From Parachlamydiales bacterium (GTDB lineage Bacteria; Chlamydiota; Chlamydiia; Chlamydiales; SM23-39): a stretch of DNA of 64,000 nucleotides. The notes beneath the pieces are model-generated. The model was not told where the DNA came from and ran no database searches. It saw nothing but the letters and a program-made list of their open reading frames with translations. The translations under genes and the position numbers were made by a program. Numbering within the stretch: position 1 is the first letter of the stretch; each line of letters opens with the position of its first letter. The stretch is from the NCBI GenBank assembly GCA_019694475.1, contig JAIBBX010000003.1:248497-312496 (forward strand). The letters are read 5' to 3'. This document shows positions 26,787 through 29,946 of this stretch, piece after piece.

Positions 26787-27218
26787 TTATGCAAAGGAGT
26801 TGTTCGTAAGGAAGAGATCGCGCCAGTGATAGCCATCGAGCAGGCCTTCTGTAGAACGGCCCAAAATATGATGGGCGATATAGAGCGCTTCAACAGAAGC
26901 GAGGCCTTGCTCGGGATTCGGCTCTCTGGGGTAGGCTGTTTTGAAGTGAGTTGGAAGGCTTCGTTCTTCAAGCTTGAAAGGAAGTTGATTTTCCATTACG
27001 GCCGCAAGGCGCCAAGTCCCGTCAATCAGAAGAAGTCCTCGATCTGAGTCCTCTTTTGTCAAAGGAGGCGCGCCCACTTTGAGCAGAATAAAGCCTGTAA
27101 CATCGGGTAATTGATGGATCGGATAGGTATAAAAAGCTAGATCGTCCCGCTTTTCCAAGCCTCTCAAAGAGCATTTTTTTAAATTTTCCCGCCTGTGGCG
27201 CAGTATGATTGTTTTCAT
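26787..27218 (-). CDS. DTW-domain protein (aminocarboxypropyltransferase TapT/Tsr3-like family)
   Basis: LLLIDGTWRLA (DTW motif), KKCSLRGL, and LASVEALYIAHHILG. Confidence 0.6.
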   Translation of the reverse strand: MKTIILRHRRENLKKCSLRGLEKRDDLAFYTYPIHQLPDVTGFILLKVGAPPLTKEDSDRGLLLIDGTWRLAAVMENQLPFKLEERSLPTHFKTAYPREPNPEQGLASVEALYIAHHILGRSTEGLLDGYHWRDLFLTNNSFA

Positions 27219-29125
27219 CCAAAAATTTTGTGATCTGTCACTTTGAATAGGGTTTTCGGTATCTCATAGAGAAAGCGGGAAGGATTCGTAGGATGGGCTT
27301 TGCCCATTTTCAGCCGGGCGCGGGCCATGCTGAGGGTTAGAAATTGCTGCGCGCGTGTAATGCCGACGTAGAAGAGGCGTCTTTCCTCTTCAAGCCCTGT
27401 CTGCATCATGCTTTTTTCATGCGGCAAAATGCCATCTTCAAGCCCCACGAGAAAACAGATTGGGAATTCGAGTCCTTTTGCACTGTGAAAAGTCATCAGG
27501 TGGACTTTGTCATCCGTCTTTTTTTGGCTTGTGTGCATTTGACGGTTCAAAGTTGTGTTCGCGATGAAATCTTGAAGCGATTCTTCTTTTGCTTCAGCCA
27601 GCGCATTGACGCATTCTTGTACGTTTTCCCACTTAAAGGCCCGCATCTTTTCCGATTTGACATCTTCTTCAATGGCTTTTTTGTAGTTGATTTTCTCAAT
27701 CAGCCAGCTCATCGCTTCACCAAAAGGAGGCTCTTTAAATCTCCTTTGGGCTTCTTCAATCAGATCGACAAATGCCTTCACTGCCTTTTTATCTTCTTTT
27801 TCGAGTAAATTCCAAAGCGGCACATTTTGCGATCTGTTGGCTTTGGTCAACTCATCCAGATATGCGTCTGAAATGCCTCTTCTCGGCACATTGATGATGC
27901 GGAGCAGCGCTTCTTGGTCGACCGGATTTGCAATCACACGCAAGTAGGCGAGGAGATCTTTGATTTCGGCCCGCTCTGAAAATTCCATTCCTCCAAACAC
28001 TTCATAGGGGATGCCTCGCATCCATTTTCCATCTCGGTTTTGCCAGGAAGCTTGCATGAGCGCCATTTCAAATTGTCTCGAAAGGGCATTCGAGCGATAC
28101 AAAATGGCCATGTCGCGCCAGCGGAAATTTTGTTCCTTAAACCGAAGCAGCCGGCTCACGACTGCATTGGCTTCTTCCACATCAGTCGGCGCATTAAATA
28201 CTTCAATCAGCTCGGGACTTTTTGATGCGCTCCAAAGACTTTTTCCATGTCGGTTTTGGTTGTTTTTTATCACCGCATTGGCTGCATCCAAAATCGCAGA
28301 AATAGAACGGTAGTTTTGCTCTAATTTGATGATGTGGTCGGCCTTGAAGTTCAAGATGTTTTTCACTTCTGCGCCGCGCCAGCCGTAAATGGATTGGTCG
28401 TCATCGCCCACTACGCATAGGTTGTTATACTTGCCCGCTAGCAATTCGGCTAATCTAAATTGAGCCGGATTTGTGTCTTGGTATTCATCGATCATCAAGT
28501 AGCGGAAGCGGTCCTGATATTTTTCCAAAATTTTTGGATGTTCTTCGAATAGCTGAATGGTCAATGTAATCAAGCTATCAAAACTGACCGCGTTATAGGC
28601 TCTCAGCGATGAATTGAGCCTCACATAGAGGTCTTTGGAAAAGGTGTCGTGCCAAGTTGTCTCTTCTGCGGAAAGGCCCTGATTTGCCGCCTCTGCTAGA
28701 GCTGCTCTCGTTGGAGCAAGAGAAGGAAGTTCCCCTTCATGGCCCAGCATGTCTCTCGCCAGCTGCTGGACGAGTCTTTGCATATCGCGCTCGTCATACA
28801 GGCTGAATTCCTTCGTATATCCAAGTTTTTCGATCTCTTTGCGCAGCACCTGCATGCAAAAGCTGTGGAAGGTGCAAAGGGTGACTTGCTTGCCAACCTC
28901 GCCGATCAGTCCTTCAACGCGGTGGCGCATTTCTGCTGCGGCTTTATTTGTGAAGGTGAGGCCTAAAATCCCACTTGGATCTACTCCGAGCCTAATTAAA
29001 TGGGCGATGCGGTGGATGATGACCCTGGTTTTCCCGCTGCCGGCGCCGGCCAAAACGAGGACGCGGCCATTCACCGTTTCAACGGCTTGCTGTTGCGGAG
29101 CATTTAATGAGGGTTGTGATTTCAT
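27215..29125 (-). CDS. UvrD/PcrA/Rep-family DNA helicase
   Basis: Motif I AGAGSGKT, DEYQDT, and the remaining SF1 motifs. Confidence 0.9.
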   Translation of the reverse strand: MKSQPSLNAPQQQAVETVNGRVLVLAGAGSGKTRVIIHRIAHLIRLGVDPSGILGLTFTNKAAAEMRHRVEGLIGEVGKQVTLCTFHSFCMQVLRKEIEKLGYTKEFSLYDERDMQRLVQQLARDMLGHEGELPSLAPTRAALAEAANQGLSAEETTWHDTFSKDLYVRLNSSLRAYNAVSFDSLITLTIQLFEEHPKILEKYQDRFRYLMIDEYQDTNPAQFRLAELLAGKYNNLCVVGDDDQSIYGWRGAEVKNILNFKADHIIKLEQNYRSISAILDAANAVIKNNQNRHGKSLWSASKSPELIEVFNAPTDVEEANAVVSRLLRFKEQNFRWRDMAILYRSNALSRQFEMALMQASWQNRDGKWMRGIPYEVFGGMEFSERAEIKDLLAYLRVIANPVDQEALLRIINVPRRGISDAYLDELTKANRSQNVPLWNLLEKEDKKAVKAFVDLIEEAQRRFKEPPFGEAMSWLIEKINYKKAIEEDVKSEKMRAFKWENVQECVNALAEAKEESLQDFIANTTLNRQMHTSQKKTDDKVHLMTFHSAKGLEFPICFLVGLEDGILPHEKSMMQTGLEEERRLFYVGITRAQQFLTLSMARARLKMGKAHPTNPSRFLYEIPKTLFKVTDHKIFG

Positions 29126-29546
29126 TTTGGATATCTGAAAATTTGGCTCCTTTGGCGCACTGTCTGGGGACGACGTGGATTTCCCAGGATGGCAAAGAAT
29201 TTTGGCGATAGGCTTCCCTGACCAATCGTTTAAACCGGTTGCGTTCGGGGGCTGAGCCGTATTTGCTGGAGGCGCTGATCCCTAAGCGCCCTTTTTTGGC
29301 TGGGCGCAAGTCGATGCAAAGAAAACGGCCTACGAGCCGTTTTCCTTCACGCATAACTTTATTGAATTCCCAGCGTTTGAGGAGGCGGGATTCTTTAGGG
29401 AAAGTTAAGCAGCCAATTTTTTTCTGCCAGCTCTGCGGCGGCGGTTGATGACTTTCCTTCCGGAGGTCGTTTTCATTCTGGCGCGGAAGCCGAATTTTTT
29501 TCTGCGGCGGGTTTTGCTTGGCTGGTATGTACGTTTCATAATTCAT
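29079..29546 (-). CDS. rnpA: RNase P protein component (start uncertain; the ORF overlaps all of rpmH out of frame)
   Basis: [18 protein letters not shown]...[14 protein letters not shown] (RNR motif). There is no ATG/GTG/TTG between the conserved core and the ATG at 29546. Confidence 0.8.
29405..29539 (-). CDS. rpmH: 50S ribosomal protein L34
   Basis: Absent from the track. Translation is [44 protein letters not shown]. Confidence 0.9.
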
Positions 29547-29624
29547 CCGATTCTATAAAATGATTTTTCTGCAAGGATATATCAATGAGATAGATATTTT
29601 CAATAAGAATAAAGAGAGAGAAAA

Positions 29625-29865
29625 GACGTCGGGCATGCTACGCGCCATAAGAAACGCAAAACGCTAAACGCAGAATGCAAAACTATGGGCTGACGCATCG
29701 GCCCCGCTGGGTCAGCGGGGGCCCCCGCGCGTCAGTGCTGAGGGGGAAGCCCCCTCGCACCCCCATTTGTGCGCGAAGCATTGGGTGCATGCAAAGGAGG
29801 GCTTCCCTCCTTATGCCCGGAACGCGGGGGCGCAGCGCCGAATGGCGCGTAGCATGCCCGGCGTC
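29625..29865. repeat. GC-rich palindromic repeat element, copy E1 (MITE/REP-like)
   Basis: 22-bp terminal inverted repeats, gacgtcgggcatgctacgcgcc / ggcgcgtagcatgcccggcgtc (21/22). The core cagtgctgagggggaagccccctcgcacccc is shared with 53757 and 54984. GC content is far above the flanks. Confidence 0.8.
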
Positions 29866-29946
29866 ATAATCTAACTTACTTTCTACCGCTTGAATAAAAA
29901 TGGCGATAGGTATATAAATATAGCCTTTGAACGTAAGGAACATTTC

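Follow-up and report, generated by a model that had tools for sequence, protein, structure and literature searches.

A chlamydial locus with rpmH nested within rnpA, a putative Thermus-like arrangement with a variant start geometry

Where does the RNase P protein (RnpA) begin at a chlamydial locus in which rpmH, the gene of ribosomal protein L34, lies wholly inside the rnpA reading frame? The question was raised by a stretch of 64,000 nucleotides (nt) from a Parachlamydiales bacterium (contig JAIBBX010000003.1, positions 248,497 to 312,496; here called the window), in which the RnpA core continues an N-terminal extension read from the same DNA as L34. The reading that we favour, at roughly three chances in four, is that RnpA starts at the ATG at 29546 and carries a disordered extension of 46 residues, the two genes forming a nest that resembles that of Thermus and would be independent of it. 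The layout of the locus and its comparison with related genomes carry this reading, and both are given below, followed by the other places at which RnpA might begin.

Reading frames and starts of the locus

The elements concerned, all on the minus strand, are the following.

29079..29546, minus: long rnpA reading frame, 155 amino acids (aa), made up of a 46-residue N-terminal extension and then the RNase P protein core
29405..29539, minus: rpmH (ribosomal protein L34, 44 aa plus TAA stop), wholly within rnpA in another frame
29544..29546, minus: putative rnpA start ATG, 7 nt (A to A) 5' of the rpmH ATG
29543..29548, minus: GGATGA, the Shine-Dalgarno (SD)-like GGA of rpmH fused with the rnpA ATG, kept in the nested clade
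29409..29546, minus: RnpA N-terminal extension, aa 1-46, the +1 register of rpmH
29405..29408, minus: junction TTAA, where relatives with the classical layout have ATGA, GTGA or TTGA
29352..29354, minus: internal ATG (Met65), start of the 91-aa RnpA of NCBI
29495..29501, minus: first A7 run in rpmH (AGA AAA AAA TTC), an in-phase A_AAA_AAA
29417..29423, minus: second A7 run in rpmH (AGA AAA AAA TTG), whose last A begins the ATT codon of Ile44 (29417..29415)
29574..29603, minus: promoter-like TTGAAA-18 nt-TATCCT

The first-pass annotation had placed rpmH entirely inside the 155-aa reading frame of the RNase P protein, and this was borne out, both proteins being recognized by Pfam. Thus, Ribosomal_L34 matched L34 over its full length (1-44 of 44, 67.6 bits), and Ribonuclease_P (PF00825) matched residues 49-148 of the long frame at 78.4 bits, the cut-off being 22.3. 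The two starts, described there as ATGs 4 nt apart, indeed read ATGAATTATG; the codons are separated by 4 nt (an offset of 7 from A to A), and rnpA occupies the +1 register of rpmH. As its stop, rpmH has TAA (29407..29405), which overlaps the rnpA-frame codon TTA (29408..29406), and at this TTAA junction the window has no classical canonical start that overlaps or abuts the rpmH stop. In agreement with the same annotation, no in-frame ATG, GTG or TTG occurs from 29546 to Met65, the leucine codons of this interval being CTT, CTC and TTA. No alternative canonical start for a complete RnpA core was thus found in the window, the next one being Met65.

The RNR motif of RnpA is kept, the motif stretch being invariant or nearly so among homologues. 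In an AlphaFold2 model based on 62 homologues, residues 50-153 took up a confident RnpA alpha-beta fold (predicted local distance difference test score, pLDDT, ∼90), and residues 1-48 were modelled as disordered (pLDDT ∼50). Sequence matches to the solved RnpA structures 1nz0, 3q1q, 1a6f and 1d6t (E values to ∼1e-8) aligned from the structures' own residue 4-5 to residue 48-50 here, residue 5 of the Thermotoga maritima structure falling on residue 48. Since the solved structures, which begin ∼4 residues ahead of the FPK motif, align from residue 48-50, a canonical RnpA would begin just before LTFPK. What precedes this point was poorly conserved in sequence beyond the constraint imposed by L34 coding, and the extension seems to be a spacer that is translated, its sequence little constrained other than to stay open.

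No SD motif was found 5' of 29546, the sole GGA being part of GGATGA together with the rnpA ATG, and the window has no single upstream SD that could serve both starts. Only 5 of 32 genes of the window carry an SD by a crude count, so an AUG without one is normal in this genome. The promoter-like pair would imply an AU-rich leader of ∼20 nt ahead of the rnpA ATG, and a −10-like hexamer (TATAAT, TAGACT or TAAACT) was seen by eye, uncounted, at a similar distance in several relatives. A leaderless rnpA mRNA is unlikely, since the promoter-like −35/−10 pair ends ∼28 nt 5' of the ATG and similar hexamers occur in relatives. Predicted folding of the start region was weak (minimum free energy of −0.8 to −8 kcal/mol per 72 nt across loci), and no conserved RNA structure that might gate start choice was found around the two AUGs, no common fold being apparent by eye and no covariation analysis having been made.

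Arrangements and selection among related loci

A protein search returned 111 homologues, most of them called as proteins of 145-170 aa with a similar N-terminal extension, M-(N/K)-x-(Y/H)-E-T... For the comparison of loci, the best 80 of 280 genome matches were taken, one locus per species-representative genome (designated by L numbers). Their titles were mostly Chlamydiae/Chlamydiota or "uncultured bacterium", with a few Verrucomicrobia, Aerophobetes and Planctomycetota; cultured Parachlamydia, Simkania and Waddlia lie outside this sample. The positions of rpmH, of the RnpA core and of all in-frame starts and stops were determined at each locus; L080, where rpmH was not found, and L046, which has N's or a frameshift, were unusable. 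On a simple neighbour-joining (NJ) tree built from L34 together with the RnpA core (∼150 residues), the window fell within a 37-locus clade. Four arrangements were distinguished.

(A) Full nest: rnpA frame open through all of rpmH, ATG 7 or 10 nt upstream within GGATGA, junction usually TTAA or CTAA. Members are the window, L001, L002, L005, L010, L012, L015, L016, L019-L022, L025-L029 and L035; L003, L007 and L008 have the same layout with a TTGA junction.
(B) Classical: frame closed within rpmH, ATGA or GTGA junction, no GGATGA; for example, L009, L013/14, L017, L018, L041 and L048.
(C) Partial nest: rnpA reading frame from an ATG inside rpmH at +44; 16 loci, including metagenome-assembled genomes (MAGs) of Rhabdochlamydiaceae and Candidatus Sacchlamyda.
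(D) Separate genes with a spacer; for example, L033, L037, L075-L079 and the Chlamydiaceae-like L081 with a 28-nt spacer.

A stop in the rnpA register requires T at a third position of rpmH followed by AA, AG or GA, and the remaining register of rpmH always contains a stop, since TGA is read in it from the ATGA at the rpmH start. When codons were resampled synonymously from local usage, the rnpA frame was open in 13.8% of the trials for the window and with a mean probability of 0.147 across loci; open frames were observed at 40 of the 80 loci. Within the clade the overlapping frame was open at 29 of 37 loci. In these 29, the stop-making T occupied none of 214 risk positions, versus 134 of 690 (19%) other positions that permit T (Fisher P of 1e-17), a figure that is partly circular because the open group is defined by its openness. 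The five closed-frame clade loci showed no avoidance (T at 7 of 41 risk and 17 of 110 other positions; Fisher P of 0.81), and it is the contrast with these closed sister lineages, together with the association with start availability described below, that gives support free of circularity. Synonymous turnover was heavy, the median codon identity at conserved degenerate positions being 0.44. Between the window and L001, for instance, L34 is 100% identical and the rpmH DNA differs at 19 nt, which change many residues of the extension and create no stop. Conservation of the alternative-frame extension, which had been put forward as a check, held for the open frame within the clade and was poor for the sequence itself, and closure of the frame in close relatives, which would have spoken against dual coding, was not observed.

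The upstream ATG behaved in concordance with the frame. An in-frame ATG within 16 nt 5' of rpmH was present at 26 of 36 clade loci and at none of 43 outside the clade, and wherever it occurs the offset is 7 or 10 (one locus also has 13), so that the frame is preserved. All 18 clade loci with no canonical start near the core were nested, versus 8 of the 18 with a conventional start that were nested-capable and 10 that were not (Fisher P of 3e-4); no clade locus lacked both kinds of start. The closed loci L009, L013/14, L017 and L018 have an ATGA or GTGA junction and no GGATGA, the open frame and the upstream ATG having been lost together. At L002, L010, L016, L020, L021, L026 and L027 no further canonical start is reached until 62-133 codons past FPK, and therefore the upstream ATG is the only canonical RnpA start in these seven loci. 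Taken at the level of sequence comparison, these patterns indicate that the nested arrangement is maintained by selection. The proposal that chlamydiae represent an independent occurrence of dual-frame coding is likewise supported by the frame that stays free of stops despite synonymous turnover, by the clade-specific ATG, by the joint loss of both where a junction start exists, and by the role of the ATG as sole start in several relatives.

Outside the clade, the ATG of the partial nests is formed by L34 codon 15 ending in A plus the codon of Cys16 (TGY) or Trp16. It was recorded at L042, L044, L045, L049, L053, L055-L058, L064, L066, L070, L073 and L074, and also at L051; elsewhere position 16 of L34 is His, Ile, Phe or another residue. 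At the +44 loci all stops of the rnpA register fall at +20 to +29, upstream of the ATG, and at most other non-clade loci stops lie further downstream. The change at residue 16 of L34 thus appears, from these codons, to be coupled to the creation of an rnpA start in this lineage. Three further non-clade loci, L039 (GTG at −7), L050 (TTG at −7) and L063 (ATG at −25), have a frame open across rpmH and no start near the core, and by this layout are possible additional independent full nestings. At L083 and L084 rpmH and the core are separated by in-frame spacers of 116-120 nt, which were considered as added proof and found indecisive, TTG codons being present near the core.

Alternative starts and readings

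Several of the observations weigh against a start at 29546. In addition to the partial circularity of the risk-position count, the loci are phylogenetically related and their tree is a simple NJ one on ∼150 residues, and for the window alone an open frame would arise by chance in ∼14% of cases. In other phyla, too, gene calling gives long rnpA frames that span rpmH in cases with a shorter annotated version, so that an open frame alone proves nothing. Furthermore, L047 (ATAA junction), L052 (CTGA) and L059 (CTAA) have a closed overlap frame and no ATG, GTG or TTG able to give the RnpA core, and the window itself has an ATT (29417..29415) 5 codons ahead of FPK. The sequences of these three loci thus suggest that rnpA starts by a non-canonical codon or by reinitiation exist in the phylum. 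This is the substance of the main rival, in which RnpA of the window would begin at a non-canonical codon near the rpmH stop, such as that ATT, or by reinitiation of L34 ribosomes on UUAA or close to it, so that neither the long frame nor the upstream ATG would be used. The CTGA junction of L020, the ATT present in the window, L001 and L010, and the weak or non-AUG starts for which rnpA genes are known (PMC9945441) count in its favour. However, the window and most nested relatives have TTA or CTA as junction codon, which differs from AUG at two positions, and no near-cognate codon is kept in position. The ATT of Ile44 in KKIGC, which the first-pass annotation had named as a start that would overturn its claim, occupies that position at just 3 of the clade's 37 loci and depends on which leucine codon L34 uses (TTR); it was rejected as a conserved non-canonical start. 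A junction start would also leave unexplained the avoidance of stops over the whole of rpmH, the clade-specific in-frame ATG and the loss of both together where ATGA or GTGA is present. We therefore regard initiation near the junction as unlikely in the window.

The other alternatives are weaker. That the nest is a chance by-product of a K/R-rich gene frame and a fortuitous ATG, with neither selection nor function, would agree with the ∼0.14 probability of an open frame in the window and with the long frames over rpmH that are common in databases, other phyla included. For its part, a profile of the extension alone, searched against 1.84 billion representative proteins, gave 1083 matches (E up to 0.001), 78 of the top 144 with an RnpA core; the matches included high-G+C non-chlamydial sequences, such as one from Steroidobacteraceae of 126 aa in NCBI versus 175 aa. 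Such matches were discarded as a sign of nesting elsewhere, since long-frame calls are no evidence and the NCBI counterparts are short. A chance origin is nevertheless contradicted by the clade-wide statistics and would leave RnpA with no canonical start codon at all, and it is strongly disfavoured. Less probable still is an L34-RnpA fusion produced by programmed −1 ribosomal frameshifting or transcriptional slippage at either A_AAA_AAA run of rpmH. Both A7 runs are perfect slippery heptamers in phase, a −1 shift at them enters the rnpA frame, and the 13-mer GCAGAAAAAAATT is present twice. Although the sites are real, runs of at least seven A's occur in a minority of the clade loci and at no single conserved place, those at the window's positions being A7 in the window and L001 only, and most nested loci (for example, L002, L005, L016 and L019-L029) have none. 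Runs of A also arise naturally from the AAA codons of the K/R-rich L34, and frameshifting would not explain the conserved upstream ATG and the open frame 5' of the first run; the slippery site not being conserved among nested relatives, this candidate was set aside. The least probable reading takes the 91-aa protein from Met65 (29354) as the true RnpA, with no translation of anything upstream. Met65 is the first canonical start 3' of rpmH and is the one modelled in the NCBI record of the same genome (MBX7066903.1; MAG Parachlamydiales bacterium). It lies, however, inside the predicted helix alpha1 (residues 58-67; AlphaFold2), and a start there would remove the conserved FPKxxRLLKRxEF that aligns with the N-terminus of the solved structures. 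Moreover, most relatives have no start codon at that position. Over the 16 codons from FPK to Val64, the window and L005 differ by 8 synonymous and 4 non-synonymous codon changes, with FPKxSRLLKRxxFxKV preserved across the stretch, a pattern by which the codons ahead of Met65 evolve as coding sequence. Since Met65 falls within helix alpha1, the preceding 16 codons evolve as coding and the solved structures start earlier, the 91-aa model is very probably truncated.

Start competition, origin and significance

With the start at 29546 as the preferred one, rnpA would be translated from this ATG through rpmH in the +1 register and into the core, giving 155 aa, and L34 from the ATG at 29539 on the same mRNA. 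The two AUGs, 7 nt apart in an AU-rich unstructured leader, would then compete for initiating ribosomes. The SD-like GGA(UG) lies 5-9 nt 5' of the rpmH AUG, correctly spaced, and the rnpA AUG is part of the same element with no SD of its own. Because the GGA would serve the rpmH AUG while the rnpA AUG has no SD, L34 would be the product of most initiations and RnpA that of a small fraction, in keeping with a low cellular requirement for RnpA. Competition between the start codons may in this way set a low RnpA:L34 ratio. In Escherichia coli, proteomics places L34 ∼130-fold above RnpA (PMC9945441).

In Thermus, according to PMC9841429, the rpmH gene sits inside rnpA, with AUGGAUG as the sequence of the two starts and a single SD reported to act for both; the pair of Thermus thermophilus and Thermus spp. 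is also described in PMC11230408. The two systems share the gene pair on the same strand, with rpmH completely inside rnpA, a start offset of 1 modulo 3, an rnpA ATG a few nt 5' of that of rpmH, and an RnpA extension that is an alternative reading of rpmH. The likeness to Thermus first proposed for this locus thus stands for the nesting and the relative frame. It does not extend to the 4-nt gap between the starts, since AUGGAUG has 1 nt between its codons and an offset of 4 (PMC9841429), whereas the offset in the chlamydial clade is 7 or 10. Here, in addition, no SD precedes both AUGs, the rnpA AUG being placed within the SD-like GGAUGA of rpmH. The genome is of moderate G+C content (47%), unlike that of Thermus, and the open frame thus needs active avoidance of stops. 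The chlamydial case also belongs to another phylum, has intermediates and reversions among its relatives, and is known from sequence alone.

The classical operon, with rnpA at or after the rpmH stop and often a GUG or UUG start, has the same gene order, co-orientation and presumably co-transcription. It is represented by L009, L013, L017, L018, L041 and L048, with a 4-nt ATGA or GTGA overlap, whereas the window's TTAA junction has no canonical start. The partial nests at +44 resemble the window in the register of rnpA over rpmH and in having no start near the core, and differ in that their start lies inside rpmH, the overlap is ∼90 nt and it is linked to the L34 residue change. Close pairs of starts that partition ribosomes between two products are also found in the ambiguous AUGUG/GUGUG sites of E. 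coli pqiA, tamA and narQ (PMC9841429) and in the dual start of the phage lambda S holin/antiholin. In those cases, however, the second frame is short or the same frame is used, while here two essential conserved proteins overlap over a whole gene.

As to origin, a 4-nt stop/start overlap (ATGA, GTGA or TTGA) is likely to have been the ancestral state in the phylum. Such an NTGA overlap would already have fixed rnpA in the only register of rpmH able to be free of stops. An ATG might then have arisen beside the SD, a point change in GGAT-N and duplication of the 7 nt ATGAAAC being equally possible causes. At L004, L011, L022 and L084 the upstream and rpmH ATGs read ATGAAAC followed by ATGAAAC, a perfect 7-nt tandem repeat, and this sequence hints that the rnpA start may have arisen by duplication of that of rpmH. 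The junction start would afterwards have been free to decay, TGA becoming TAA (TTGA to TTAA in the window), and regain of ATGA or GTGA would have allowed reversion. On balance, Chlamydiota probably hold several independent and reversible nestings of rpmH in rnpA, some full, with the AUG in the ribosome-binding element of rpmH (the window's clade, 37 of 80 genomes), and some partial, by way of the His16-to-Cys/Trp change in L34.

Two features of the neighbourhood were also recorded. The divergent rpmH/rpmJ intergenic region contains a GC-rich element of ∼240 nt (29620-29870), flanked by a 24-nt inverted repeat (29625-29648 and 29842-29865) that is 96% complementary. As RNA the element folds to −144.6 kcal/mol (z = −7.95 versus shuffles); it has no credible Rfam match, its repeat arm occurs nowhere else in the window, and it may be an insertion like a miniature inverted-repeat transposable element or a structured RNA. 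At its other end, rnpA overlaps by 47 nt (29079-29125) the first ATG of a downstream UvrD/PcrA-like helicase reading frame (27215..29125, minus strand). L082-L084 share the order S14-L36 (divergent), rpmH/rnpA, helicase, and the sequence of L085 ends before the helicase domains.

The locus is at odds with current annotation. PGAP keeps rpmH and shortens rnpA to 91 aa (MBX7066903.1), and Prodigal-type callers keep the long rnpA and omit rpmH altogether (L083, L084 and L085); under current overlap rules, correct annotation of both genes is impossible. According to papers from 2022 and 2025, no bacterial case has been described, other than the rnpA-rpmH pair of Thermus, in which an ambiguous start region is shared by two essential genes. 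A full-text literature search of incomplete coverage, which leaves an earlier mention elsewhere possible, found no report of nesting for Chlamydiae. As judged from the comparisons above, the window is supported as a new, independent member of the Thermus type of nested rnpA/rpmH, with a variant start geometry. In a genome that is not G+C-rich the open alternative frame does not come free, and since the arrangement is clade-wide, with visible intermediates and reversions, the route to complete gene overlap and to start-codon competition becomes directly testable. If Chlamydiota do hold several such nestings, Thermus would exemplify a recurrent and selected means of setting, by competition between start codons, a very low ratio of RnpA to L34 synthesis, and the classical, dual-start, nested and reverted chlamydial loci would form a natural experiment on the complete overlap of essential genes.

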